Part shown: piece by piece, positions 8,751 to 59,261 of the stretch | Numbering within the stretch: position 1 is the first letter of the stretch | Layout: the number at the start of each line of letters is the position of its first letter | Origin: an uncultured bacterium | GTDB taxonomy: Bacteria; Patescibacteriota; Minisyncoccia; UBA6257; 2-01-FULL-56-20 | Assembly (NCBI GenBank): GCA_963844965.1 | Contig: CAWJQC010000007.1 | Coordinates: 267,719-331,718 of the forward strand | Length of the DNA: 64,000 nt | Direction of reading: 5' to 3' | Position numbers and translations under genes: made by a program | The notes under the pieces: generated by a model | The model's database searches: none | Seen by the model: only the letters and a program-made list of their open reading frames with translations | Told to the model about the DNA's origin: nothing

Positions 8751-10773
8751 ATGAAGAATACTTCCTGGACGGTGGGTGTTTTGGTGGTTTGTGTTTCTGT
8801 AAGTTTGCTTGCGGCGTCAAGCGCTTACGCGGCTACGCCGACGCTTTCGCTCGCGGTGACGAGCGGGGATTCTGTGCAGATAAACGTGATCGGCGATTCG
8901 AATTTTCCGGTCGTGTTTTATTACAATGTCGGCAGTTCTTCCGGAACGAACACAACGACGCTCGGTAGTACGAACTCCAGCGGCGTTTTTTCAACAACGA
9001 TAAGCACGGGCGCGTACGCGATAAACTCCAGCTATCCGGTATATGTCGTAGTGGATGGTCAGCAGTCAGCTACACAAACCTGGCCTTACGGCGCCAGTAC
9101 TTCCTCGGGTACAAGCGGTACGCCAGTACTCAGCCAGACAAGCGTTACGGTCGGTATCGGGCAGTCAGTGACCGTGACTTCGCAGGGAGGCAGCGGCATC
9201 TATTTGGTGTCCAATTCCAATTCTTCTGTGGCCGCCGCTTACGTATCTGGGACACAGGTTGTTGTTACCGGAAGCCAGCTGGGTTCAACGACAATGACAA
9301 TCTGTTATGTGGGTACCGCTTCCAATTGCACGAATTTGTATGTGAATGTGCAGAGCGGAACCGTGCAGGCGCTCACGTTCAGCCCGAACAACATTTCCTT
9401 ATCGGTCGGTGGCAGTCAATCTGTGACCATAAGCGGCGGGAGTGGAACGTATAGTTTGTCTTCCAATTCAAACTCCAGCGCCGTTTCCGTGAATTTATCG
9501 GGAAACACGCTTACGGTGACAGCCATCGCGGCCGGGAGCGCCAATATAACGGCATGCGACACGTCGGGAAATTGTAGTGTCTTATATGTGACGGTGGGCG
9601 GAAGCTCAACAAGCGGTTCCTTGTCTTTCAGCCAGACGAATCCGTCTATAGCGGTCGGACAGGTTATAAGCGTGAGTGTTTACGGCGGAAGCGGCTATTA
9701 CGTGTCCGCTAACACGAACTCCGGCATCGCCTCGCAAACGCTGAATGGCAACACACTCTCAATCTCTGGTCTGGCAGCCGGAGCGACGACGATCACCGTA
9801 TGTTCGGCGGTGAACGGCTGCGGCTACCTTTATGTCACCGTCGGTTCGTCATCCGGCACGAGCCAGACAATTACTTTTAGCCAGACGAATCCGTCCATAG
9901 CGGTCGGACAGGTTATAAGCGTGAGTGTTTACGGCGGGAGCGGGTATTACGTAACGGGCAACACGAATTCCAGTGTCGCTTCGCAAGCCCTTAATGGGAG
10001 CATACTTTCCATCTCCGGATTGGCAAGTGGCGCCACGACTATCACGGTATGTTCCGTGGCTAATGGCTGTGGTTCGATTTACGTCACGGTCGGTTCGTCG
10101 TCGGGCTCGAGTATGGCCATCACCTTTGGCACGACCAATCCCACTATTACAACGGGGCAAAGTATGAACATCTCGCTTTCTGGCGGTTCCGGTTATTTCG
10201 TTTCGTCTAATCCAAGTACGAATATTGCGCAGGCAAGCGTTACGGGCAATACGCTTGCGCTCTATGGCGTGGGCGTCGGCTCCGATTCGCTTACGATTTG
10301 CGCGAGTTCCGGCGGCTGCAACACGCTTTACGTCACAGCTGACAAGCGTGACGACCGTTCCGACCACCACGCAGACACAGCAAACAGTTGTTTCGAGCGC
10401 TTGGATAACCGAGATCCAGACAATGCAGACCCAGCTCACAAATATCCTCGCCCAAATCCAAACTTTACAAAGTAACCTTGCAAATCTTCTTACGCAAGTT
10501 ACCGCCGGCGCGCAAAGTCCAAGCGTAAGTGGCACGACGACCGCGCAATCCAGCGGCTATAAATTCTACAGCCCGCTCTCGCTTGGCTCGAGCGGCGCAG
10601 ACGTCACGGCATTGCAGACCCTCTTGGCCGCGAAGGGATATTACACTGGTTCCATAACCGGTTACTACGGTACGGCGACGATGGACGCGGTGATGGAATA
10701 CCAGACGGCTCATGGTATCACGCCGCTCGGCAACGTGGGTCCCGCCACCCGCGCGGCGCTGAACGCGGAATAA
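8751..10773 (+). CDS. cell-surface protein with tandem BIG2-like Ig repeats and a C-terminal peptidoglycan-binding domain (frameshift near 10330)
   Basis: ORF 8751..10475 has a signal peptide, S/T/G-rich sequence and at least 5 tandem ~80-aa repeats (…SQTNPSIAVGQVISVSVYGGSGYY…ATTITVCS..NGCG.LYVTV). Overlapping ORF 10225..10773 in another frame continues the sequence and ends in a PG_binding_1 motif (LSLGSSGADVTALQTLLAAKGYYTGSITGYYGTATMDAVMEYQ). Confidence 0.65.
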
Positions 10774-14140: not shown

Positions 14141-14220
14141 TCCGCGGAGCCATTTTTCATTTTCCGCCCGCACTGCCTACCTTCTCTAATTTTTGCCAAA
14201 GGCGGACAAGCCTGCCTGCC
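14141..14220. repeat. ~80-bp intergenic repeat, copy A (upstream of the metallopeptidase gene)
   Basis: tccgcggagccatttttcattttccgcccgcactgcctaccttctctaatttttgccaaaggcggacaagcctgcctgcc is ~88% identical to copy B at 14757..14836. It is followed by TAGAAT 8 nt before the ATG. Confidence 0.6.
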
Positions 14221-14756: not shown

Positions 14757-14836
14757 TCCGCGGAGCCGTTTTCATTTTCCGCTCATGCCGTTTACCTTCT
14801 CTAATTTCCGTCAAAGGCGGACAAGTCTGCCTGCCC
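14757..14836. repeat. ~80-bp intergenic repeat, copy B (upstream of the small membrane ORF/cyclophilin)
   Basis: See copy A. Followed ~70 nt later by TAAAAT immediately before the ATG at 14914. Confidence 0.6.
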
Positions 14837-21888: not shown

Positions 21889-22015
21889 TTTGCTATTTTG
21901 TCTGAAAAATAGGCCCTGACTCAAAGTCGAGGTTTTTATTTGTTGTCGGCGGGACATTTTGGATTTTTCCAGTAGTAAATGCTAAACTAAATCTACAACT
22001 TAATATGCCTAAACC

Positions 22016-22129
22016 GCCGAAATTTCGGTAACATGGCGTAAAAATCCCATCCCTGATACTAAGCTCCTCGCTTAGCTACTCAGGGATGGGTCGCGTCTCG
22101 AAAGAGGCGTGGGTAACCGAAAGGTTGCC
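22016..22129 (+). promoter_or_regulatory. highly structured palindromic leader upstream of the MTase-nuclease gene (nested perfect hairpins, GNRA-type loops, repeated CCCATCCCTG motif)
   Basis: ccgaaatttcgg; cccatccctga[tactaagctcctcgcttagcta]tcagggatggg (11-bp perfect stem with inner stem); gcgtctcgaaagaggcg; ggtaaccgaaaggttgcc. CCCATCCCTG recurs at 22176, 4 nt before the ATG. Confidence 0.35.
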
Positions 22130-22188: not shown

Positions 22189-23787
22189 ATGCCCAACAAG
22201 CTTTACTTCGGAGATAATCTTGATATCCTCCGCGACAAAATCGCCGACAATTCGGTTGATTTGATTTACCTTGACCCACCGTTCAACTCCAATCGCAACT
22301 ACAACGTACTTTTTAAAGAGGGATTGCAGGATAGTCCAGCACAAGTTCAAGCATTTGAGGATAGCTGGCACTGGACGCGCGAAGCGCAGGCGACTTTTGA
22401 GGAACTAATGGGTGTGCGGCCATCAAAGACAAAAATCAACGCCGACATCGTTAATTTAGCGCAGGCGTTAGAGAAGCTAGTCGGCCATAACGATATGCTG
22501 GCTTATCTCACAATGATGACGATTCGCTTAATCGAACTAAGGCGTGTTCTGAAGCCAACCGGAAGTATTTACCTTCATTGCGACCCAACCGCCAGCCATT
22601 ATTTGAAAGTTGTGTTGGACACCGTTTTTGGGAAACAAAATTTTTTGAATGAAGTCATTTGGAGATACGAAGGACCTCAATCGCCAAGCTTAATTAAATT
22701 TGCGACGAAGCACGATATCGTTCTTCGTTATGCGAGTGATATAAAATCTTGCAAAGCCGTCGAATTATATTATTTTGAAAAGATATCAGTTGAAGATGCA
22801 AATTTTAAGCAGGATGAGAATGGGCGTTATTTCTATACTCTACCCAAAGGAGACTATACCGAAGAAAGCATAAAAAGATTAGAACAAGAAGGTCGTATAT
22901 TCAGGACCTCTAAGGGAACAGTGCGTATAAAGTATTTTGTAGAAAAAACTTCGGATGGGAACTTTTTGCGTAAAAAGAAAATACCAGACGTTTGGGACGA
23001 CATACCTTCGCTTGGGCTTACTGCCCAATCGAAAGAAGTTCTTGGTTATCCGACCCAAAAACCCGAAGCACTTTTGGAAAGAATAATCAGAGCATCTTCA
23101 AAAGAAGGCGACTTAGTTCTTGACCCATTCTGCGGTTGTGGCACGACGGTCTCCGTCGCTGAGCGGCTAAAAAGGAATTGGGTTGGTATTGATATTACGA
23201 TGCTTGCTATTAATTTGATTCGCCATCGCCTCGCGAAACAATATCCGAACATAGAAATTTTAGTGGATGGCAGGCCAAAAGATATTCCCGCAGCCGGGGC
23301 GCTTTTCAAAAAAGACCCGTTTGAATTTGAATACTGGGCACTGGATTTAGTTGACGCTGTTCCTGCTCAAAGCAAAACCAAAGAAAATATGCGTGGCGCA
23401 GACAAGGGGATTGACGGCGTGATTAACTTTGTCAGAGACATAAAAAATGGCGAGCAAGTTTACGGTAAGTTGGTTGTTCAGGTGAAGGGTGGTGCGGTTC
23501 ACCGCGACCAAATTGCTACGCTTAAGGGTGATATAGAGCGTGAGCGGGCCGACGGCGGAATTTTTGTGACGCTCGAGAAGCCAACCCAGCCAATGAAAGA
23601 AGAGGCAGTAAGCACCGGAAGTTATAAGGTGGGTTTTGGCAAAGGAGAATACCCGAAAATTCAGATAGTAACCATAGAGGATTTATTAGATAATAAGAAG
23701 CCTGAAGTTCCTATTGCCGCCCTGCCTTATTATAAAGAGGCCAAAGTTGCTAAATCCGAAAACAGGTCAAAAAAATTAGGAATATAG
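22189..23787 (+). CDS. DNA methyltransferase (N6A/N4C, beta-class) fused to a C-terminal Mrr-type restriction endonuclease catalytic domain
   Basis: DLIYLDPPFNSNRNYN (motif IV), then LVLDPFCGCGTTVSVAERL…WVGIDI (motif I). The C-terminal ~180 aa (GADKGIDGVINF…GKLVVQVKGG…ADGGIFVTLEKPTQPMKEEA) matches the Mrr_cat PD-(D/E)xK block. Confidence 0.75.
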   Translation: MPNKLYFGDNLDILRDKIADNSVDLIYLDPPFNSNRNYNVLFKEGLQDSPAQVQAFEDSWHWTREAQATFEELMGVRPSKTKINADIVNLAQALEKLVGHNDMLAYLTMMTIRLIELRRVLKPTGSIYLHCDPTASHYLKVVLDTVFGKQNFLNEVIWRYEGPQSPSLIKFATKHDIVLRYASDIKSCKAVELYYFEKISVEDANFKQDENGRYFYTLPKGDYTEESIKRLEQEGRIFRTSKGTVRIKYFVEKTSDGNFLRKKKIPDVWDDIPSLGLTAQSKEVLGYPTQKPEALLERIIRASSKEGDLVLDPFCGCGTTVSVAERLKRNWVGIDITMLAINLIRHRLAKQYPNIEILVDGRPKDIPAAGALFKKDPFEFEYWALDLVDAVPAQSKTKENMRGADKGIDGVINFVRDIKNGEQVYGKLVVQVKGGAVHRDQIATLKGDIERERADGGIFVTLEKPTQPMKEEAVSTGSYKVGFGKGEYPKIQIVTIEDLLDNKKPEVPIAALPYYKEAKVAKSENRSKKLGI

Positions 23788-23889
23788 GCGGTACTTGACA
23801 CCGTTATCCACTCGTATATACTTAAACTATTCCAAAGACCGCAGGGCATCCGCCGATGAGGCGGCATAGGACCCGCGATAGGAATCGTT

Positions 23890-23971
23890 GGAGTAATCGC
23901 TAATAATGCGAATATCGGCAAATAATGCAAATAAAATTCGCATTATTTGAAAAAGATTAGCATTATTCGCG
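23890..23971. repeat. ~85-bp repeat family copy 1 (arrays of GCGAATAATGC-like sub-repeats in direct and inverted orientation), within the rplJ leader
   Basis: ~85% identical to 28967..29048. Internal inverted repeats aataaaattcgcattatt / attagcattattcgcg. Confidence 0.6.
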
Positions 23972-24018
23972 GACACTCCTCGATGGCGGCCTTTGGAGAA
24001 AAGGTCGTTTTTTATTCC

Positions 24019-24102
24019 TTACGAAAATACGAAAACATACGAAATTACGAAAAAGAGGTTTGAGCCCTTTCGTACGTTCGTACAATTTCGTACTTTCGTA
24101 AG
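24019..24102 (+). promoter_or_regulatory. rplJ leader: inverted array of heptamer repeats (4x TACGAAA ... 4x TTTCGTA) forming a long imperfect hairpin
   Basis: cttacgaaaatacgaaaacatacgaaattacgaaaaag…ctttcgtacgttcgtacaatttcgtactttcgtaag, ending 9 nt before the rplJ ATG. Preceded at ~23806 by TTGACA-N16-TATACT. Confidence 0.5.
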
Positions 24103-24110
24103 AGTTAGCG

Positions 24111-24635
24111 ATGAAATCGCGAACGCAAAAACAGGAAGAGTTAAAAAGGGGGAAAGAGCTTTTAGACAAGTCGCAAGTTTTGGTTTTCACGGACTTCACC
24201 AAAGTCAAAGCCGAGGACTTGCGGCGGATGCGGCGCGAACTCAATAAGGTGGGAGCGAATTTTCTTGTCATCAAGAAGCGGCTCTTGGCGCTGCTTCTCA
24301 AGGAGCGGAAGGTGGACTTTGACACGAAGCAGTTCAAGTTGTCCATCGGCACAATTTTTTCGGAAGGGGACATGGAAAAAATCAGCGGGCCGGTCTATAA
24401 GTTCTTCTCGGCATTGGAAATTTCCGAGGGCAAGGAGAAAGACATGTGGATAAAGCATATTCTCGGCGGTTATGATCTCAAGAATAAAAACTTGATAGAC
24501 GCGCTGGAGGTCGTTACCATCGGCAAACTGCCGCCGCGCGAAGTGCTTCTCGGCCAGCTGTTGGGCACGCTCGTCGCGCCGCTAAGGTCGTTCATGTATA
24601 TCTTGAGCGAGAAATCCAAAGTAGCGGCAAAATAA
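24111..24635 (+). CDS. rplJ: 50S ribosomal protein L10
   Basis: 174 aa with a typical L10 N-terminus (…KQEELKRGKELLDKSQVLVFTDFTKVKAEDLRRMRREL…) directly upstream of rplL. Confidence 0.85.
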   Translation: MKSRTQKQEELKRGKELLDKSQVLVFTDFTKVKAEDLRRMRRELNKVGANFLVIKKRLLALLLKERKVDFDTKQFKLSIGTIFSEGDMEKISGPVYKFFSALEISEGKEKDMWIKHILGGYDLKNKNLIDALEVVTIGKLPPREVLLGQLLGTLVAPLRSFMYILSEKSKVAAK

Positions 24636-24712
24636 TAAGTCTCCAGATGTGAGAAGCTGCATAGCCCCGTTTGGTGTGGGGGAAAGGTCGTAAGAATCAA
24701 AGACAACATAAC

Positions 24713-25075
24713 ATGGCAAAATTTGACGAATTAATATCTAAAATAGAAAAATTAACCGTGAGCGAGCTCGCGGAACTGGTGAAAGAACTTGAAACAAAGT
24801 TTGGCATTACGGCCGCCGCTCCGGTCGCGGCTGGCGGAGCAGCGGCCGCTCCCGCGGAAGAGAAAACGAGTTTCAGCGTTCTTCTCAAAGCCGCCGGAGC
24901 GCAGAAGCTCAACGTCATCAAAGCGGTCCGCGAAGTGACAACGCTTGGCCTTAAGGAAGCGAAAGATTTGGTTGAAGGCGCGCCGAAAATGGTGAAAGAG
25001 AACGTCAAGAAAGAGGAAGCGGACGAAGCAAAAAAGAAACTGGAAGCCGCAGGCGCAACCGTGGAGATTCAATAG
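24713..25075 (+). CDS. rplL: 50S ribosomal protein L7/L12
   Basis: [31 protein letters not shown]…Ala-rich hinge…[23 protein letters not shown]…GATVEIQ, the canonical L7/L12. The ORF track starts at 24671; the internal Met at 24713 is the conserved start. Confidence 0.9.
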
Positions 25076-25128
25076 AAGGTGGAAGTCACAGACACAATTT
25101 TGGGATTCAATGGAGATAGACCCCGACC

Positions 25129-25680
25129 TTGCGTCGGGGTCTAAGGTTTTTGAGAAACCTTGCCAGCCGACATTTTATCTGCTACCCTGGTTTTAGTTCT
25201 TCTTTGGCACGTATATTCGGTCGGAGGTATAGCATGAAAGGACCATATTCGCCGGTTGACAGAGCGTCTGTCGTTTCTTTGTTGATATTGAATAATATCT
25301 ACCGCAATCAATGCGAGGAGAACACGATACGAAAAATTTCCGGTATTTTGCACGATCTTCGAGAGAAGGGTGTGCACATTACAGACCTGGGGCTTGATAG
25401 AAGGATTGGGGGTGACTATTACTCCGAATTTGTGGATTCTACTGTTTACCTCCTCAATTGGAAGCGTTCCACGACGAGCGTGAGCGGTTTCAACCTGAAC
25501 CAGGAAGGAATTAAGTTCTGCGGCAGCAATGTGCTTGATGAATTGAATGGTCCGCACAAAGCAGAATTTCTGGAAATCGCGAGAATGCTCAAAATTGACA
25601 TGCCGGAGTTGCTCAAAAACTTGCGCAATTCAACGGCCGAGCAGGAGGAATTATTTCCCAAAAACGTGCCCCGAGGTTGA
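25129..25680 (+). CDS. hypothetical protein
   Basis: 183 aa ORF (probable start at the internal Met ~25234) with no recognisable motif. Confidence 0.3.
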   Translation: MRRGLRFLRNLASRHFICYPGFSSSLARIFGRRYSMKGPYSPVDRASVVSLLILNNIYRNQCEENTIRKISGILHDLREKGVHITDLGLDRRIGGDYYSEFVDSTVYLLNWKRSTTSVSGFNLNQEGIKFCGSNVLDELNGPHKAEFLEIARMLKIDMPELLKNLRNSTAEQEELFPKNVPRG

Positions 25681-25759
25681 ATCCGGGGCATTTTTGTTTT
25701 AGAATGTTCCCGTAGGCGCGTTTAGGGCCGATGTCGGCCAATAAATTAATAATAAACAA

Positions 25760-25831
25760 GGGCGTTTAGCTCAGTGGTAGAGCGTTCGCTTCACATGCGA
25801 AAGGCCGCTGGTCCGATCCCAGCAACGCCCA
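25760..25831 (+). tRNA. tRNA-Val (anticodon CAC)
   Basis: Cloverleaf: acceptor GGGCGTT/AACGCCC, D arm GCTC-AGTGGTA-GAGC, anticodon stem TTCGC/GCGAA with loop TTCACAT, T arm GCTGG-TCCGATC-CCAGC. CCA is not encoded. Confidence 0.8.
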
Positions 25832-26000
25832 CATTGGTTGAGCATCAAATTTTTTTATAATCGGTTTTTTTTTGGGTTCGTTACCGGAATTTTTAACCGA
25901 ATGGACGGTGGCCGGCTGAAATTTTCCGTTTCGGAAGTTTTCCGAGTTATGCACAGAATTCACTTTTTATTTTTGAAAATACTTTTATAATTATTTGTAA

Positions 26001-27319
26001 ATGGCAAACTCTGCGAATCACAACGGAGAAAATTATAAAAAAAAGTTTTTATTTGTGTCTTTGGAAAGTTTGAGCGGGGACCTGGCGTGGAACGTTTTGA
26101 AAGAAGGAAACCAGGTCAAAATTTATATAGAGAGAAAAGAGGATGTTGACGTCTACAATGGTTTTCTGGAAAAAGTTGACGACTGGAAGAAATTCGTTGA
26201 CTGGGCGGACGTGGTCGTTTTTGACGATGTTGAGTTCGGCGGGTTCGCCGACAAGCTGAGGCAAAAAGGTAAGCTGGTCATCGGCGGCTCGGAATACACC
26301 GACCGTCTTGAGATTGATAGGGAGTTCGGGCAGACGGAACTCAAAAAATACGGAGTGAGCACCCTGCCGAGCTGGCAATTTTCCGATTACGACGAGGCGA
26401 TAAAATTCATACGCCAGAATCGCGACAGGTACGTTTTCAAACCGAGCGGAAATACGCCGAGCGACGGGAAAGGTTTGCTTTTTCTCGGGCAGGACGAGGA
26501 CGGCCACGACATGATAGAACTTCTGGAGGGGAACAAGGACGTCTGGAAAAAGAAAGCGCCAGTGTTCCTTCTGCAGAAATTCATTTCTGGAGTTGAAGTC
26601 GCGGTCGGCGCGTTCTTCAACGGCTCGGATTTTATCTATCCGATAAATATCAATTTTGAACACAAGCGGGTTTTTCCCGGGAACATCGGTCCCTTTGCCG
26701 GCGAGATGGGAACTTTAATGTTCTGGGATTCGCCGAACGTGCTTTTCCACGAGACGCTTGAAAAATTATTGCCGGCTCTAAAGGAATCAAAGTACGTGGG
26801 GTATGCGGATATCAATTGCATCGTGAACGGCCGCGGCATTTATCCTTTGGAATGGACGTGCCGTTTCGGTACCCGACGATCCAGATACAGTCGGAGGGGA
26901 TCTTAATGCCGGCGAGCGAGTGGTTGTGGCGCCTCACGAAGGGCGAGAATTTTGAACTTAAAACGAAGCGAGGTTTTCAGGTGGGAATGAGAATTCTCGT
27001 GCCCACGTATCTCACACGCGACAACGATCCGGAAGTTGAGGTCTACAGGGACCTCGCCGTGGCTTTCAAAAACCCGGAAAATCGCGAAGGCATTCATATT
27101 GAGGACATAAAGAACGACAAAGGAGTGTGGCGTATCGCCGGAACGAGCGGCTGCGTGCTTGTAGTGACCGGAACCGGGACAACCGTGGAAGAAGCGAGAA
27201 GGGTTATGTACAACAGAGCGAAGAATATAATGATACCCGGTATGTTTTACAGGACAGATATCGGTTTAAGCTGGGGCTCGGACAGCGATAAACTTCAAAC
27301 CTGGAGGTATTTGGATTGA
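26001..27319 (+). CDS. PurD-like ATP-grasp protein (frameshift near 26870), immediately upstream of mraZ
   Basis: ORF 26001..26906: …FEHKRVFPGNIGPFAGEMGTLMFWDSP… matches PurD DHKR..GD.GPNTGGMGAY. ORF 26816..27319 in another frame gives RFGYPTIQ… and GIHIEDIKNDKGVWRIAGTSGCVLVVTGTGTTVEEARRVMYNRAKNIMIPGMFYRTDIG, a PurD-like C-domain. The N-terminal ~150 aa is atypical. Confidence 0.55.
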
Positions 27320-27526
27320 TAAAAGCTTGATAGTTGATAATCTGTGGATATCTGACGGCCTCGCTTGATGATTTGTCTTGTAAAATAAGGATTCTTTCGC
27401 CGCTTCGGCGGCGATTTTTTGTTTTTGACACGCTTCGGCGGTGGTGTATCGTTAAATGAAAGTGGTGAATTGTGGATAAAGCTGGGGATAAATGCCACTT
27501 TCTGTGCAGAACTTTCCTTCAAACCA

Positions 27527-27958
27527 ATGCTACTCGGCGAATATCAACACAATTTGGATTCCAAAGGTCGGGTGGCAGTTCCGGCCAAATTCAAAGAAAA
27601 ACTTGCGGCCGGCGCCATCATTACGCGCGGGTTGGATAACTGCCTGTTTGTTTTCGCGTCCAAGGAGTGGGATGTCTTGGCGCAGAAATTGGTGGCTTTG
27701 CCTCTCGCTCAGGCGAATTCGCGGGCGTTCGTGCGGCTGATGCTCGCGGGCGCGATGGACGCGACGCTGGACAATCAGGGCCGCATATTGATCCCGGATT
27801 ACTTGCGGAAGTACGCCGACCTTAAGAAGCAGGTGATAATCGCGGGTTTATACAACCGCGTGGAGGTTTGGGACGCCGAGAAGTGGAGCGAGTATAAGAA
27901 GAAAACGGAGGGAGCGTCCGAGGAAATAGCGGAAAAGCTGGGTGAGCTCGGTATATAA
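27527..27958 (+). CDS. mraZ: transcriptional regulator MraZ
   Basis: MLLGEYQHNLDSKGRVAVPAKF… and a second SpoVT/AbrB-like half (…LDNQGRILIPDYLRKYADL…). Start taken at the internal Met of ORF 27419..27958. Confidence 0.85.
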   Translation: MLLGEYQHNLDSKGRVAVPAKFKEKLAAGAIITRGLDNCLFVFASKEWDVLAQKLVALPLAQANSRAFVRLMLAGAMDATLDNQGRILIPDYLRKYADLKKQVIIAGLYNRVEVWDAEKWSEYKKKTEGASEEIAEKLGELGI

Positions 27959-27960
27959 AT

Positions 27961-28054
27961 TTCTAATTCCTAATTATTCTAATTGACCTAAGGAATGACC
28001 AATGAATAAATTTTTGAAAATTGGGAGTTTTTTAGAAATTAGAAATTAGATCAA
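27961..28054. promoter_or_regulatory. mraZ-rsmH intergenic inverted array of octamer repeats (3x TTCTAATT ... 4x AATTAGAA)
   Basis: ttctaattcctaattattctaattgacc…tagaaattagaaattagatcaattagaaattc, ending 10 nt before the rsmH ATG. Confidence 0.45.
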
Positions 28055-28064
28055 TTAGAAATTC

Positions 28065-28973
28065 ATGCACCACCATCCGGTTCTTTTAAAAGAAATCATA
28101 AAATTTTTAGATCCGAAACCCGGCGAATTCATTGTTGACGGCACGGTTGACGGAGGAGGACACGGCGCCGAAATTTTTGAAAAGATTTTACCGAATGGAA
28201 GACTTTTGGGCGTAGACCTGGATGCCGATCTCCTGGAAAAAGCTTCGCGGGCAGTTTCCGCGAAAGTCAAAAGCCGGAAATCAAATATCAACAGCAATTT
28301 GATTTTGGTTCGGGGCAACTACGCCGACCTACCGGATATTTTGGAAGAAAAAAAGTTGCCGAAGGCCGACGGTTTGCTTCTGGATCTGGGATTTTCCTCC
28401 GAACAATTGGAGAACGCCGAAAAAAGGGGATTCAGCTTTGAAAAAAATGAGCCGCTTTTGATGACCTACAGCGCCGGGCGGAAGCCCGTCAAAGAAATTC
28501 TCACGGAACTTGACGCCAAGGAGCTTGCGAAAATCATCTTTGAACTGAGCGGTGAGAAGTTCGCGATGCGGATAGCGCGGGCGATAAAAGAACGGGGGCG
28601 GACGAGAGCAGTAGAGACAAGCGGTGAGCTCGCGGAAGCGGTCCGGGGCGCGGTGCCCAAAAATTATGAGCGCGGCCGCATTGATCCCGCGACGAGAACT
28701 TTTCAGGCGCTGCGGATTTACGCGAACGACGAACTAGGGAATCTTAAAAAAGTTTTGGACAGATTGGGAGAAATTCTGGAACCGGGCGGGAGAGTGGTGA
28801 TTATAAGTTTCCATTCGCTTGAGGATCGAATAGTGAAGGATAATTTTCGGAAGCTGGAGGAATCCGGAGAACTCCGGATTTTGACGAAGAAGCCGGTTCG
28901 CCCCGCGGAAGAGGAAATTTTGAAAAATCCGCGCAGCCGCTCAGCTAAACTGCGCGCCGCTATCATGGAGTAA
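28065..28973 (+). CDS. rsmH: 16S rRNA (cytosine1402-N4)-methyltransferase RsmH (MraW)
   Basis: HHPVLLKEII…DGTVDGGGHG…DLGFSSEQL…SFHSLEDRIVK, the conserved MraW motifs. It sits in the dcw cluster. Confidence 0.9.
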   Translation: MHHHPVLLKEIIKFLDPKPGEFIVDGTVDGGGHGAEIFEKILPNGRLLGVDLDADLLEKASRAVSAKVKSRKSNINSNLILVRGNYADLPDILEEKKLPKADGLLLDLGFSSEQLENAEKRGFSFEKNEPLLMTYSAGRKPVKEILTELDAKELAKIIFELSGEKFAMRIARAIKERGRTRAVETSGELAEAVRGAVPKNYERGRIDPATRTFQALRIYANDELGNLKKVLDRLGEILEPGGRVVIISFHSLEDRIVKDNFRKLEESGELRILTKKPVRPAEEEILKNPRSRSAKLRAAIME

Positions 28974-29048
28974 TCGCGAATAACGCGAATGATAGCAAAT
29001 AACGCGAATAAAATTCGCATTATTCAATAAAAATTAGCATTATTCGCG
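28967..29048. repeat. ~85-bp repeat family copy 2 (GCGAATAATGC sub-repeat array), rsmH-ftsL intergenic
   Basis: See copy 1 at 23890..23971. It begins at the rsmH stop codon. Confidence 0.6.
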
Positions 29049-29057
29049 AATACTCTA

Positions 29058-29393
29058 ATGACCTTTATCCAACCAAACAAAAACAGCGGCATTTTAAATA
29101 AAATTTTGGCTGTCCTTGTGATCTGCTCGGTTTTTAGTGGCGCGGCGCTAGTTGTGTTGTATAATAGGATAGTCAATTTTGACCACGGCCTTGATAAGGC
29201 GAAAGCCGAGCTGGCTAGCCTGCAATCGCAGAACGCCGACGCTAAAGATAAAATCTTTGAATTGCTTGATACCGACAAGGATTCGGCGGCATTGAAGGAT
29301 TACGGTCTGGTTGAAGATAAAAATCCGCAATATTTAGAAATTTCCTCCAAAGACGAGAATTCACAACAATGGTCATACGCTTCTGGACGTTGA
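29058..29393 (+). CDS. FtsL-like cell division membrane protein
   Basis: 111 aa, single TM (ILAVLVICSVFSGAALVVLY) then a coiled coil. Position between rsmH and ftsI is conserved for ftsL. Confidence 0.45.
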   Translation: MTFIQPNKNSGILNKILAVLVICSVFSGAALVVLYNRIVNFDHGLDKAKAELASLQSQNADAKDKIFELLDTDKDSAALKDYGLVEDKNPQYLEISSKDENSQQWSYASGR

Positions 29394-32336: not shown

Positions 32337-32438
32337 GTAGTGTAAAGTTTAAAAATCAAAATTTAAAATGACAATGTAAAATTTAAAAATTTAACTGCAA
32401 TTTTACATTTTGATATTTGCATTTTAAATTTTTGCGAT

Positions 32439-32510
32439 GGCGCATTCGTCTAGTGGCCAGGACAGGTGGTTCTCATCCACCAAACAGGGGTTCGATTCCC
32501 CTATGCGCTA
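32439..32510 (+). tRNA. tRNA-Glu (anticodon CUC)
   Basis: Acceptor GGCGCAT/ATGCGCT, D arm TTCGTCTAGTGGCCAGGACA nearly identical to E. coli tRNA-Glu, anticodon stem GGTGG/CCACC with loop TTCTCAT, T arm AGGGG-TTCGATT-CCCCT. An AT-rich palindrome sits upstream (32337-32438). Confidence 0.8.
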
Positions 32511-32641
32511 CATTCAGCTTTCGTTATCGAGGAGACGCGGTTGCGTCCATTTGTGCTACATTTTCCAAAGATGTTGGCAAGTAAATTAGAAGAGAGTAGG
32601 CTATATTGCGGATAGTAAAATAGCTGTTTCGATACAAAAGC

Positions 32642-44081: not shown

Positions 44082-44377
44082 AGTTAGTTCTTCATTTCTA
44101 TCACGTTGAGCAGCTTTTCGCAAAAGATGAAGGGACGTCAGGAACCCTCAAAAAATATTGTCAAACTGGCTCCAAACGTGATACCTTTTAGGTAATTGAA
44201 TATCAGATAGATCGCCTAAACCACGCATTTTGCATGGCATGGCATTACGCAGAATCTCCCTTCCAGATACCAAACGCCACGTTTGGCGACTTCTGGAAGG
44301 GAGTCACTCCGAAAGGGGTGGGGCCGCAAGGCCCAAGCCAGCGTGGCGTTTTGTGTTCTCTATTTTAAAACAAACCC

Positions 44378-45289
44378 ATGGCCTTATTCTCCATCTCAAA
44401 CGGCAGCACGAAGAAAATATCATCCGTGAAAATCGGGCTTGAAAAAGACGTCCAAAAACTCTTCGAGAAAAACCTTGAGGAGATTTTGAATATCACATTC
44501 CTAGCATCAGAGTATTCAACGAGCTTCGGCGGACGAATCGATACGCTGGGTATGGATCATAACGGAGCGCCAGTGATCATTGAATATAAGCGGTCGCAAA
44601 ATGATAGCGTCATCAACCAAGGCCTGTCATACCTCCGATGGCTTCTTGATCACAAAGCGGATTTTGAAGCGCTGGCGCACCGATTAAAAATTGAGATTGA
44701 AATTGATTGGGCTTCTCCGCGCGTTATCTGCGTGGCCGAGAGTTACAATAAATTTGACCTCGATACCGCCGATCTTCTGCCGATGAACATAGAACTGTTA
44801 CGCTACAAGATTTATGAACAAAACATTCTTCTCGTTGAACCAGAAGTGCAACGCAAAATAAAAATATCCACGTCGGAAGTATTCGAGAAAACAACGCGGG
44901 AGAGGCACGAGTTTAAAGAACAGATCAAACACACCATCGAAGATCATTTGAAATCAGCAAATCCCGCCATCCGCGATCTTTTTGCCGCCATGAAAGAGAA
45001 AGTTCTTGCGCTTGACGAATCAATCAGCGAGGAGCCGAAAGCGCATTACATTGCCTACAAACTGGTGAATAATTTTGTGGATGTTGCGGTGCAAAAGGAC
45101 GCCTTAAAAATTTTCCTCAACATCACGAGCGGCGCGTTAAATGATCCGACATCTCTGGCCCGCGACCTTACTAAGCCGAAACCCGTTGGCCACTGGGGTA
45201 ACGGCGACTACGAACTCAAGCTTGATCAACGGGAAAATCTCAATGCTGTGATGGCGCTCATCAAGCAAAGTTACGAATACAACAAGTAA
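44378..45289 (+). CDS. NucS/DUF91-like PD-(D/E)xK nuclease-domain protein with uncharacterised C-terminal domain
   Basis: 303 aa: …GGRIDTLGMDHNGAPVIIEYKRSQND… resembles the NucS/EndoMS-type nuclease motif. It is preceded by a long perfect hairpin at ~44262-44330. Confidence 0.4.
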   Translation: MALFSISNGSTKKISSVKIGLEKDVQKLFEKNLEEILNITFLASEYSTSFGGRIDTLGMDHNGAPVIIEYKRSQNDSVINQGLSYLRWLLDHKADFEALAHRLKIEIEIDWASPRVICVAESYNKFDLDTADLLPMNIELLRYKIYEQNILLVEPEVQRKIKISTSEVFEKTTRERHEFKEQIKHTIEDHLKSANPAIRDLFAAMKEKVLALDESISEEPKAHYIAYKLVNNFVDVAVQKDALKIFLNITSGALNDPTSLARDLTKPKPVGHWGNGDYELKLDQRENLNAVMALIKQSYEYNK

Positions 45290-56217: not shown

Positions 56218-56360
56218 GATTCTATAAGATTCTAACGGAATGAATCCCGTTAGAAATCGCGGACGCTTTTTGCCAATGGCATATTTACTGAACGGTCAAG
56301 ATATGGCAAACAATAAAGATAGGCGCGGATTTTTTTCGTCCGCGTCCTATTTCTAACGGG

Positions 56361-57014
56361 ATGAAGAAGACGGACCTGAAAGCGGCCCTAGTCATCGGAG
56401 CCGGTGTTGGGCTTCTAATTCAGCCGATTATTGAGAACATTATGAGGGGATCGGCAGCGCTCGTTTTTCTTTTCGGGACGGGAGCGTTGGGATTGCCGAC
56501 GCGCCTGATTATTCTGATTTTTTTCGCTGTTCTCGCACCGCTCGCGCTCTTTGTCGGTTATTTGCTGGGAAAGATATTGCCGGTGATATATCAGTTTACT
56601 AAATTCGCGGCCGTCGGTACTCTGAATTCTTTCATCAACGTGGGTGTTCTGAACCTCTTGTCGCTTTTGACCGGTGTGGCGAGTGGTATCTGGATACCGG
56701 TTTTCGCCACCGTGGCGTTCTTGGCTGCTACGACAAACAGCTTTTTCTGGAATAAATACTGGACTTTTGGTACTCACGGAGGTCCGAAAGCCGGCGAGAC
56801 CGTCAAGTTCTATGTTATAGCCGGCGTCGGCTGGATCCTGAACACATCCGCGATCTCCGTGGTAGTCAACTATTTGCGCCCGCAGAGCGTTTCTCCCGAG
56901 CTTTGGCTTAATATCGGAGCATTAGCGGGCATCGTGGTGTCCTTCCTATGGGACTTTTTTGGCTATAAATACCTGGTTTTTAAAGAAACGGGAGAAGTAA
57001 AAATTGGTTCCTGA
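56361..57014 (+). CDS. GtrA-family membrane protein (extra N-terminal TM helices)
   Basis: …YQFTKFAAVGTLNSFINVGVLNLLS…NSFFWNKYWTF… matches GtrA (F..VG…N……N..W.F), with 4-5 TM helices. Confidence 0.55.
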   Translation: MKKTDLKAALVIGAGVGLLIQPIIENIMRGSAALVFLFGTGALGLPTRLIILIFFAVLAPLALFVGYLLGKILPVIYQFTKFAAVGTLNSFINVGVLNLLSLLTGVASGIWIPVFATVAFLAATTNSFFWNKYWTFGTHGGPKAGETVKFYVIAGVGWILNTSAISVVVNYLRPQSVSPELWLNIGALAGIVVSFLWDFFGYKYLVFKETGEVKIGS

Positions 57015-57998: not shown

Positions 57999-58334
57999 GG
58001 AGCCGGCTGTAGAGCACTCAAACAATTCCCCTTTGGGTGGTTGCCAGTAGAGCACTCATTCATAACAAACAGAATTGGAGGTCACCACTGGCAACCACCC
58101 AGGGCAGAATTGTCCCGCAACTCTCTGCGAGCCGCCAAGGTGAGCAGCTAGAGTTGGCGCGATCCCGCTTAATCTCCGATGCATGCAGACAACTGGTTTT
58201 CATCGCAGAGAGAACGGGATCTACGCCAATCTAACCTCAGGACTTTGTCCTTCGGAGATTGGGCGGGAGAGGTCACCACAGCCGCTCCGCCGAGAACCTT
58301 TCTGGGTTCTGGGCGGAGCGGCTGTTCGTGTTTC
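57999..58334 (+). ncRNA. candidate structured RNA / long structured leader upstream of murB
   Basis: Perfect 14-bp stem gggtggttgccagt/actggcaaccaccc; perfect 13-bp stem cagccgctccgcc/ggcggagcggctg ending 15 nt before the murB ATG; long-range complement aactctctgcgag/ctcgcagagag; direct repeat gtagagcactca x2. No credible ORF. Confidence 0.3.
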
Positions 58335-59261
58335 ATGGAGTTCAAAAAAGACGTCAATTTAGCGGAATACAGCAACTATAAAATCGGCGGGCCGGCCAAG
58401 TTTTTTTTTGAAGTGAAAAGCGTTGAAGAGACAGAATGGGCGGTCAAGGAGGCGAAGAGGCGCGGACTTAAAATTTTCGTTTTGGGAGGCGGAACGAATC
58501 TTTTGATTAGCGACGAAGGTTACGATGGCTTGGTTCTGAAACCGGCCGTGAGATTTTTGAAGTGCGACGGAACGGCAATAACAGCCGGGGCAGGGACTTT
58601 AATGTCCGAACTTTTGGATTTCGCGGCGGAAAAAGGATTAAGTGGCCTTGAGTGGGCCGGCGGACTGCCGGGGACTTTGGGCGGCGCTATCCGCGGCAAC
58701 GCCGGCGCTTTCGGCGGCGAGATTAAGGATTCCGTTGGCTCGGTAATGAGCTTGAGGATCGGCGACTTGAAGCAAGTGACAAGGGACAAGAATGAATGCA
58801 AATTTGGATACAGAGCGAGCATCTTCAAGGAGAGCAGCGGCGAAGAAATAATTTTAAGCGCCACATTGCGTTTAAATAACGGCGAGGCGGCGGAAATCAA
58901 AAAAATTATCCGGGAAAAAATTGATTATCGCTTAAGCCGCCAGCCGCTGGAGTACCCCAATATCGGAAGCATTTTCAAGAATGTTCCAGTTGAACTCGTA
59001 CCGAAAGACGTTCTTCCAAAATGCGCCGATGCTATAAAACAGGACCCATTCCCGATAGTTCCGGCGGCCCGTCTCATCGGACTTACCGGCCTCAAAGGCG
59101 CAAAACACGGCGGCGCGATGATATCGCCCAAGCACGGCAATTTCATTGTGAACGTCGGGGATGCCAAGGCGGCGGATGTCAAAAATCTTATAAACCTAAT
59201 TAAAGAGGAGGTCCGCAAAAAGTTCGGTATCAAATTGGAAGAGGAAATAATGGAATTGTAG
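58335..59261 (+). CDS. murB: UDP-N-acetylenolpyruvoylglucosamine reductase
   Basis: MEFKKDVNLAEYSNYKIGGPAKFFFEV…FVLGGGTNLLISDEG… (FAD-binding) and C-terminal MurB motifs. Start at the internal Met of ORF 58179..59261. Confidence 0.85.
   Translation: MEFKKDVNLAEYSNYKIGGPAKFFFEVKSVEETEWAVKEAKRRGLKIFVLGGGTNLLISDEGYDGLVLKPAVRFLKCDGTAITAGAGTLMSELLDFAAEKGLSGLEWAGGLPGTLGGAIRGNAGAFGGEIKDSVGSVMSLRIGDLKQVTRDKNECKFGYRASIFKESSGEEIILSATLRLNNGEAAEIKKIIREKIDYRLSRQPLEYPNIGSIFKNVPVELVPKDVLPKCADAIKQDPFPIVPAARLIGLTGLKGAKHGGAMISPKHGNFIVNVGDAKAADVKNLINLIKEEVRKKFGIKLEEEIMEL

Follow-up and report, generated by a model that had tools for sequence, protein, structure and literature searches.

The DNA analysed here, a 64,000-nt stretch of contig CAWJQC010000007.1 referred to as the window, comes from an uncultured Patescibacterium and carries two copies of a short palindromic element in the operons of rplJ and rsmH. 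Copy A lies in the leader of rplJ, the gene for ribosomal protein L10, and copy B between rsmH and an FtsL-like open reading frame (ORF). This gene context was proposed in an earlier note on the same DNA and is borne out by Pfam, a promoter scan and the positions of the ORFs (Table 1). It also holds, as the note had stated, that the two copies are situated in intergenic DNA that is transcribed and belongs to essential operons. The top relatives of the window's RsmH are labelled Liptonbacteria, Paceibacterota and Patescibacteria, the closest in the protein database being only 71% identical, which leaves no close relative for an empty-site comparison. That the two copies belong to one repeat family, which recurs in other genomes, is close to certain.

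Both copies are 90 nt long, slightly longer than the note had given, and are 84% identical without gaps (23889-23978 and 28966-29055 in the repeat finder), with the similarity lost immediately beyond these limits in a pairwise alignment. Each forms a single long imperfect palindrome, in which 24-nt outer arms of the form GGAGTAATCGC-G/T-AATAAYGCGAAT enclose an internal loop of 7 x 8 nt, a 12-nt inner stem and a 3-nt loop. The unit AATAAYGCRAAT, allowing up to one mismatch, occurs nine times in the window against 2.7 expected, a count reached in none of 100 shuffles. Eight of the nine matches lie inside the copies, two direct and two inverted in each, which is the arrangement of sub-repeats originally described. 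Searching the window with a profile of one arm brings up four arms and no more, two in each copy (E-values of 2.5e-11 to 1.4e-9). A chance repeat is excluded by the repeat finder, the E-values of the arm profile and the unit counts against shuffles. Predicted folding reaches -33 to -40 kcal/mol (z -6 to -7) on either strand. A known RNA family was ruled out, as no Rfam 15 match overlaps copy A or B at the gathering score or even at E <= 5. An intrinsic terminator was likewise rejected, the terminator scan being empty at both copies and the 3' flank typically reading (T)ATG.

Table 1. Positions of the two copies, their parts and the features around them in the window, with stop-to-start hairpins at the corresponding junctions of related loci.
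Feature	Sequence	Position	Strand	Remarks
Sigma-70-like promoter TTGACA-16-TATACT	window	23795-23822	+	11/12 matches; homologous to the L002 promoter
L10 leader, 5' domain	window	23830-23888	+	homologous to the L002 and L049 leaders; copy A directly 3'
Copy A	window	23890-23979	+	beta-to-alpha orientation; apparently inserted in the rplJ (L10) leader
Copy A, beta arm	window	23890-23913		
Copy A, spacer	window	23914-23920		
Copy A, inner stem	window	23921-23932 / 23936-23947		paired segments
Copy A, spacer	window	23948-23955		
Copy A, alpha arm	window	23956-23979		
Terminator-/attenuator-like hairpin of the rplJ leader	window	23985-24009	+	followed by a T-run; downstream of copy A
rplJ (ribosomal protein L10)	window	24111-24635	+	Pfam Ribosomal_L10
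rplL	window	24671-25075		Pfam
mraZ	window	27419-27958		Pfam
Junction hairpin	window	27959-28064		
rsmH	window	28065-28973	+	Pfam Methyltransf_5, E = 2.9e-82
Copy B	window	28967-29056	+	beta-to-alpha orientation; occupies the whole rsmH-ftsL spacer
Copy B, beta arm	window	28967-28990		
Copy B, inner stem	window	28998-29009 / 29013-29024		paired segments
Copy B, alpha arm	window	29033-29056		
FtsL-like ORF	window	29058-29393	+	N-terminus MTFIQP
Junction hairpin	L002	4738-4820		
Junction hairpin	L001	5931-6000		
Junction hairpins	L124	554-641; 1557-1655		
Junction hairpin	L125	5906-6000		
Junction hairpin	L126	6931-7032		

Copy B overlaps the end of rsmH and stops just short of ftsL. The rsmH gene ends ATG GAG TAA, and GGAGTAA are the first bases of the copy; the last codon GAG and the stop TAA (28971-28973) are thus bases 2-7 of copy B, with the stop at offset +4. 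The C-terminus of RsmH reads ...AKLRAAIME-stop in the window and ...AKLRAALMT-stop in the related locus L002. At the other end, the ATG of ftsL lies 1 nt past the copy with no intervening Shine-Dalgarno sequence. The start MTFIQP is common to the gene 3' of rsmH in relatives, which fixes the start codon of this FtsL-like ORF. The ancestral rsmH/ftsL junction can be tight, with a spacer of 2 nt in L001, and the best explanation is that copy B replaced such a junction.

Copy A starts 65 nt 3' of the sigma-70-like promoter, which places it inside the transcript. The sequence that precedes it aligns with the L10 leader of L002, which lacks the element, so copy A is inferred to have been inserted in, and to interrupt, the L10 leader. 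The L002 leader gives a full-length, sub-threshold match to the Rfam L10 leader RF00557 (33.5 bits, E = 0.021), and the leader of L049 also scores below the threshold, at 29.6 bits. A second hairpin of the rplJ leader, at 24018-24102, is likewise missing from L002 in the leader alignment. This hairpin is unrelated to the family. It is built of four TACGAAA and then four TTTCGTA units, folds at -33 kcal/mol (z = -6.4) and ends 8 nt 5' of the rplJ ATG.

The wider family was recovered by scanning species-representative genomes for the pattern of the inner hairpin (AATAAYGCRAAT, 0-30 nt, ATTYGCRTTATT). This returned at least 117 loci of 8 kb, and all family counts given here refer to elements among these loci. 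In most loci from Patescibacteria the match is embedded in the complete 90-nt architecture. The arm profile identifies at least 85 full elements and at least 18 solo arms at these loci, with element lengths of 59-168 nt and a mode of 89-94 nt. Full elements come from at least 32 assemblies, counted from record names, with at least 22 copies in the Liptonbacteria metagenome-assembled genome (MAG) JACPLI01. The consensus on the transcribed strand reads RGAGTAATCGC(G/T)AATAAYGCGAAT, about 7 nt ending in GGCA, AATAAYGCRAAT, a variable loop, ATTCGCATTATT, about 8-10 A/T-rich nt and finally ATT(A/C)GCRTTATTCGCGA(A/T)TACTCY. The termini and the four units are conserved, while both spacers and the loop vary between genomes. 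Within a genome loops and spacers are often common (four times in L005, twice in L118, and in L016, L038 and L106), near-identical copies are clustered in genomes, and truncated and 1.5-unit copies are present. No tRNA gene lies within 200 nt of the elements at these loci. A phage origin was rejected: among the viral contigs of IMG/VR the pattern matched just three trivial chance hairpins, none with the family flanks.

By their labels the assemblies are Liptonbacteria, Wolfebacteria, Harrisonbacteria, Paceibacterota, 'Patescibacteria group' and 'Saccharibacteria'. The hosts are ultra-small Patescibacteria of the Parcubacteria/Paceibacteria type. Loci titled 'uncultured Candidatus Saccharibacteria' (L032, L004, L042 and others) have the gene order of the window and of the Liptonbacteria MAGs, and proteins of these MAGs are 55-71% identical to those of Liptonbacteria and the window. 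Judging from gene order and protein identity, the title is probably a generic placeholder for Patescibacteria and the MAGs are probably Paceibacteria. Outside the Candidate Phyla Radiation (CPR), hairpins built from the same 9-mer, CCGCGAATAACGCGAAT...ATTCGCGTTATTCGCGG, occur in Acidobacteria and Chloroflexi, for example at L039, L067 and L072 (Pyrinomonadaceae) and at L086, L090 and L109 (Anaerolineae). Some of these are terminator-like with T-runs, and a 16-mer is shared with the beta arm of copy B; the family termini are absent.

The two arms of the element are not equivalent. Arm-to-arm identity at positions 7, 12 and 21 is 28, 16 and 28, against 45, 36 and 38 expected from shuffled partners. 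The beta arm reads GGAGTAATCGC(G/T)AATAAYGCGAAT and the alpha arm, read inward, GGAGTATTCGCGAATAATGCTAAT; the spacers are also unlike, with ...GGCA after beta and an A/T-rich, AAATCCAAA-like sequence before alpha. As the arms differ at fixed positions, the element is directional, and both window copies point from beta to alpha along the + strand, the direction of transcription. Among 72 arm-oriented elements, 27 have the order gene end, beta to alpha, gene start, against a single case of the reverse co-directional arrangement. Ten of the 72 lie between convergent genes, and the beta end faces a start codon in only six. The alpha end faces a convergent stop codon in 19 of the 72, and eight elements touch no gene.

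Both ends of the element also stand in fixed relation to the neighbouring genes. For ORFs of at least 80 codons, the start codon lies 0, 1 or 2 nt from the element end in 13, 33 and 7 of about 73 cases respectively (53 of about 73). Of alpha-type arms, 17 of 22 adjoin a start codon, and of beta-type arms 20 of 100. Start codons that abut the element are confirmed by conserved N-termini such as MKYIF of PyrG and MTFIQP of FtsL. A start codon that is part of the element itself, with CAT...ATG termini, was rejected because stop-facing ends lack CAT. In L007 and L117 the element lies 6 nt 5' of the mature 16S rRNA start AGAGTTTGATCC, about 75-100 nt downstream of a TTGACA-17-TATAAT promoter. The stops of upstream genes cluster at -2, +4 and +14, in or at the beta arm, and arise from a TAG made of the flanking TA and G1, from the TAA of GGAGTAA and from the TAA of CGCGAATAA, respectively. 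Upstream genes that read further gain tails, ending in SNRE-stop (Fpg-like), VIANNANN-stop (RsmH of L032) or EVIANTAN-stop (L10 of L049). The earlier note had asked whether copies always lie in 5' leaders; in other genomes the element is usually found either at operon-internal junctions or in transcribed leaders, such as those of 16S rRNA and rplJ.

These positions bear directly on the operator array for a dimeric protein that the note had proposed. On that view a dimeric or tetrameric protein would recognise DNA at the four AATAAYGCRAAT units, among them the perfect 12-bp palindrome TATTCGCGAATA of the alpha arms, and would either control the neighbouring genes or organise the DNA. The primary sequence of both arms is conserved rather than their pairing, as protein-DNA recognition would give, and the dyad TATTCGCGAATA lies 6-17 nt before the ATG. 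There are, however, no isolated units in the window, and most copies are either operon-internal without room for a promoter (27 stop/start junctions) or well downstream of the promoter in leaders, with no promoter-like match in either window copy. Strict polarity is unexpected for a palindromic operator, and the downstream genes are mixed housekeeping genes that form no coherent regulon (pyrG, metG, secY, ssb, rplL, the genes for L2, L4, L14 and S9, mreB, clpP and hsp20). An operator is consequently considered very improbable.

A portable outward promoter that gives the downstream gene a leaderless or short-leader mRNA is hardly credible. Near the gene end, the alpha bases do give rise to AATACT and, in roughly a third of the copies, to TAGCAT (a TANNNT form), and Correia elements are known to create promoters (PMC2649163). 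Yet only 4 nt separate AATACT from the ATG, which leaves no room for transcription to start at or before it, and the best pair of -35 and -10 boxes has 8/12 matches, below what the scan reports. Moreover, a canonical promoter lies upstream in the rRNA and rplJ leaders, and many copies are within ribosomal-protein operons.

The distribution of copies between relatives indicates repeated insertion. In the nearest relatives neither window site carries the element. In the rplJ leader it lies 5' of the attenuator-like hairpin in the window, and 3' of it, 2 nt before the ATG, in L049. A family element is also found at the rsmH-ftsL junction of L032, joined differently to rsmH, and the rplJ-rplL junction is occupied in L049 and L069. 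Absence in relatives together with differing insertion points indicates independent insertion events, and the same operons have been occupied recurrently. Duplication of TA or any other target site was rejected, as identical flanks of 2, 3 and 4 nt occur 8, 2 and 1 times against 7.4, 2.6 and 0.8 expected and are thus no more alike than chance. Pairing ends exactly at the first base of the element. No transposase is found among the 25 most frequent Pfam families of 55 downstream proteins, and solo arms do not flank ORFs at the loci of the scan. The alternative offered in the note, a small non-autonomous mobile element, is therefore right in part: the family is dispersed, multi-copy (at least 85 full elements in at least 32 genomes) and inserted independently, but it is not an ordinary MITE (a miniature transposable element with inverted repeats). 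Nor is it the neutral MITE scattered at random that the note had named as the outcome contrary to its own proposal, given the lack of target-site duplication, the 27:1 orientation, the abutment on start codons and a conservation above neutral.

This conservation is clearest upstream of pyrG, where three species have copies that follow the preceding gene, with its end ...HFCPKCQ, at one and the same site and are 80-98% identical. In these species PyrG is 70-75% identical and silent positions are saturated (four-fold degenerate sites only 44-49% identical), which excludes neutral decay of the element, whose core is intact. Other orthologous pairs of elements show similar conservation. A selfish, non-autonomous repeat with no function for the host, inserting almost anywhere but surviving where it is least harmful (at tight junctions, in leaders and in the orientation of the weaker hairpin), is possible, if rather unlikely. 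With a spacer such as the 2 nt between rsmH and ftsL in L001, any tolerated insertion must touch both the stop and the start codon, and TAA triplets near the beta end do serve upstream genes as stops. The local clustering of copies, the truncated and 1.5-unit copies, a sense strand that is the weaker folder and the lack of covariation are all in keeping with such a repeat. The 27:1 orientation and the concentration of starts at 0-2 nt are nonetheless extreme for passive filtering, as longer spacers offer more neutral sites. Against it stand also the identity of orthologous copies relative to four-fold sites and the nature of the genes concerned: essential and highly expressed ones (rplJ, rplL, secY, pyrG, metG, ssb and the genes for L2, L4 and L14) put up with a hairpin of some -31 kcal/mol that lies 0-2 nt from their ATG.

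The favoured reading, considered fairly probable, is that of a dispersed, non-autonomous, polar hairpin element, transcribed within junctions and leaders, with a role like that of REP, ERIC or Correia elements and retained by selection. The element has no coding capacity and, spreading in genomes without leaving a target-site duplication, persists almost exclusively in one orientation within transcribed spacers. Its beta, upstream end supplies stop codons to the preceding gene, and its alpha, downstream end abuts either the start codon that follows or 16S rRNA at its mature 5' end. Co-transcribed with its neighbours, it would then fold, with fixed mismatches, to a stem-loop at about -31 kcal/mol, which may act at the RNA level as an intercistronic or leader signal for processing and stability. 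Candidate roles are that RNase III enters there and/or that RNase J and PNPase are halted; all three nucleases are reported to be retained in CPR bacteria (PMC12641178). A role at the RNA level is proposed chiefly because of the 27:1 orientation with transcription, which is stricter than gene-strand bias allows and thus points to a constraint exerted through the transcript or through transcription.

Several observations weigh against this reading. RNAalifold on 33 oriented copies retains only 17 invariant pairs, of which none is compensatory, with a covariation term of +0.18. Over all 36 pairs of the structure, the share of paired cells is 86.2%, compared with 86.9% once partners are shuffled; 498 of 500 shuffles equal or exceed the observed value, and the covariation score is 0.055 against 0.061 in shuffles. 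Pairing no better than in shuffles is explained by the conservation of each arm, and a conserved RNA helix supported by covariation found no support in these two tests. Mismatches are concentrated at the fixed arm positions 7, 12 and 21, which show anti-covariation, and at variable Y/R positions the two arms vary independently. On the sense strand there are 85 C.A mismatches against 42 G.U pairs, and pairing is not maintained at variable positions. In 41 of 55 elements it is the antisense hairpin that folds more strongly (mean of -35.1 kcal/mol, against -31.3 for the sense hairpin, p = 2e-4), whereas selection on a helix in the sense RNA would lead one to expect the reverse. Further points are that the start-codon geometry is missing in copy A, which lies 130 nt away from the ATG of rplJ, that no mobilising enzyme or binding protein was identified around the elements at the loci of the scan, and that the breadth across taxa is read from record titles only. 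The conservation of orthologous copies could also partly stem from concerted evolution or re-insertion, and not from selection at the level of the host.

Conservation thus resides in the individual arm sequences, of which the helix is a consequence. A transcribed element is predicted to form this helix unavoidably, at about -31 kcal/mol. The conservation of arm sequence and not of pairing points to a sequence-specific protein and argues against a classical riboregulator. It probably reflects recognition by a protein that is either a mobilising enzyme or a factor binding RNA or DNA.

The geometry at the two ends could alternatively belong to translation. The hairpin would juxtapose the upstream stop, at its 5' foot, and the downstream AUG, at its 3' foot, allowing re-initiation across the base of the stem. 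In a variant of this model, removal of the hairpin by RNase III and RNase J would produce leaderless or nearly leaderless cistrons and the mature 5' end of 16S rRNA; both enzymes are kept in CPR bacteria (PMC12641178). Such punctuation, proposed from the sequence, is improbable. It would account for stops at -2, +4 and +14, starts at 0-2 nt without a Shine-Dalgarno sequence between element and ATG, and the position 6 nt before mature 16S rRNA. It also agrees with the rarity of Shine-Dalgarno sequences in the host, where GGAG or GAGG lies upstream of 11 of 50 window genes against a background of 8.6%, and many ATGs in the window are preceded by A/T-rich sequence or by TATAAT- or TATACT-like boxes 8-10 nt upstream. 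These features suggest that the host may have leaderless or short-leader mRNAs. The basis of the model is, however, only geometric, and it does not fit the 19 alpha ends that face a convergent stop, the eight elements that touch no gene or the distance of copy A from rplJ. A split Shine-Dalgarno sequence, with GGAG brought near the AUG by the stem, is unlikely, as the terminal GGAG is often AGAG, GAAG or AAAG, its first bases thus often being AG, GA or AA, and the host rarely uses Shine-Dalgarno sequences. The lack of covariation in the helix counts against punctuation as well.

Unrelated hairpins at the same junctions are also in line with punctuation. The mraZ-rsmH and rsmH-ftsL spacers of the clade are repeatedly filled from stop to start by hairpins of 70-105 nt (Table 1), whose arms consist of 3-4 tandem sub-repeats of 7-9 nt and their complements. 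The unit is lineage-specific, being of TTCTAA type in the window, L002 and L125, TAGCT in L001, GTCATAA at both junctions of L124 and TAGAAAA in L126, with GAAAC as another. The family described here, the GCGAAT family, may be one member of a general class of hairpins at gene junctions. That polar hairpin cassettes serve as general intercistronic punctuation in Parcubacteria-type CPR bacteria, with this family as the most widespread type alongside lineage-specific hairpins, is distinctly doubtful. If true, punctuation would be a bacterial analogue of mitochondrial tRNA punctuation, giving leaderless or nearly leaderless cistrons in organisms that are mostly free of Shine-Dalgarno sequences. 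Elsewhere in the window, at 56244-56360, a hairpin CCCGTTAGAAAT...ATTTCTAACGGG surrounds a G+C-rich inner hairpin and ends at the ATG of the ORF 56361-57014, with the geometry of the junction hairpins.

The window contains further repeats and structures. LOOT RNA (RF03000) occurs at 22006-22129 and 44213-44334 with 84.1 and 58.4 bits, scores that exceed the gathering threshold in each case. A fusion ORF of a DNA methylase and an Mrr-type endonuclease (22189-23787) follows closely downstream of the first match, and the ORF 44378-45289 lies downstream of the second. The purD gene is apparently split into a GARS_A ORF (26001-26906) and a GARS_C ORF (26816-27319) that overlap out of frame, where L126 has a single gene of 454 aa; this appears to be a frameshift, a pseudogene or a sequencing error. 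Within the 574-aa ORF 8751-10475, a unit of 249 nt is tandemly duplicated at 9625-10122 (79% identical), and a two-copy repeat of 67 nt (14154-14220 and 14769-14835) is 84% identical at a distance of 615 nt. A long hairpin that folds strongly (58022-58113), with 36-nt arms that are 78% complementary, lies in a 244-nt gap before the ORF 58179-59261; for the gap as a whole z = -6.9. A palindrome of about 90 nt (32343-32432), very rich in A+T and immediately upstream of tRNA-Glu (32439-32511), folds no better than shuffled sequence.

The family, whose core sequence recurs in dozens of species, offers a concrete handle on mRNA processing and translation initiation in CPR bacteria, or Patescibacteria, which account for a large part of bacterial diversity and whose gene-expression organisation is hardly known, and it points to a sequence-specific protein that recognises or spreads it. 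It also affects the annotation of MAGs, both in start calls and in C-termini, as RsmH, L10 and Fpg-like proteins read into the element. By interrupting known RNA motifs it leaves an L10 leader undetected, and it could serve as a lineage marker. No description of the element was found in the literature on repeats and translation signals in Patescibacteria and CPR bacteria, an absence that is not proof of novelty. Even as a merely tolerated selfish repeat, it would be the first such family found described for this group.

ERIC (enterobacterial repetitive intergenic consensus) elements, or IRUs, are non-coding, multi-copy imperfect palindromes of ~127 bp that lie in transcribed intergenic regions, including operon-internal ones, and form co-transcribed hairpins (PMC10969869; PMC2229807). 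Their effect on mRNA depends on orientation, with an RNase E site unmasked in Yersinia (PMC10969869; PMC2229807). The present element resembles them as a non-coding, multi-copy imperfect palindrome of ~100 nt in transcribed or operon-internal spacers, where co-transcription is presumed. It differs in its unrelated sequence, its phylum, the 27:1 orientation, the abutment on starts at 0-2 nt and arms made of repeated 12-mers. The RNase E route of ERIC also contrasts with the RNase III, RNase J and PNPase reported for CPR bacteria (PMC12641178).

Transcripts of Correia elements (CREE or NEMIS) of Neisseria fold and are cleaved or bound by RNase III, altering the expression of neighbouring genes (PMC2649163; PMC10969869). 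Like these, the element is short, multi-copy, gene-proximal and bounded by inverted repeats, with end variants called alpha and beta. Correia elements have a TA target duplication, an IHF site, promoters and a range of one genus, whereas the element shows no target duplication above chance, has no convincing promoter and occurs in many genera. REP sequences, with their BIME and REPIN arrangements, are mobilised by RAYT transposases (Y1 HUH enzymes of IS200/IS605 type). They are G+C-rich, 20-40 nt long and end in GTAG or CGTC, and roles in mRNA stabilisation have been proposed for them (PMC3733652). Shared with REP sequences are inverted doublets that form long hairpins, the lack of target-site duplication, conserved mismatches that distinguish the strands, frequent transcription and a location mostly between unidirectional or convergent genes. 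Unlike REP sequences, the arms are A+T-rich and end in RGAGTA, GTAG is found in only ~6/64 copies, no RAYT gene was seen within the 8-kb loci, and REP sequences are not known to abut starts.

Of the features of a MITE, the derivative of a DDE-transposase element, the family has inverted repeats (24-nt arms that are 79-87% complementary), small size, no coding capacity and dispersed copies, and lacks target-site duplication; the window itself holds only two copies. TIGR arrays consist of 5-15 tandem units with alternating edge and loop repeats of 8-12 nt, variable 9-nt spacers and a tas gene with a Nop domain (PMC12045711). They were rejected as a match, as the element is a single inverted unit that is dispersed and has rplJ, rsmH and ftsL as neighbours. 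An integron attC site was also rejected: it needs RYYYAAC...GTTRRRY, an array of accessory-gene cassettes and intI close by, while the element ends in RGAGTAATC/GATTACTCY, and the neighbours are the core operons rplJ-rplL and mraZ-rsmH-ftsL and the genes for SecY, L2, L4 and L14, not cassettes.

The intercistronic RNase III signals of phage T7 have a lower stem, an asymmetric internal loop and an upper stem between cistrons, as in the predicted fold of the element. Cleavage of the T7 signals leaves a protective 3' hairpin on the upstream mRNA; the sites are single-copy, unrelated in sequence and not dispersed. The element belongs to a known kind, the intergenic palindromic repeats, and what sets it apart is its strict polarity, its abutment on start codons and 16S rRNA, the lack of target-site duplication, arms built of 12-mers and its occurrence in many CPR species. 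It acts most like ERIC/IRU, Correia and REP/REPIN elements and is a member of none of them.

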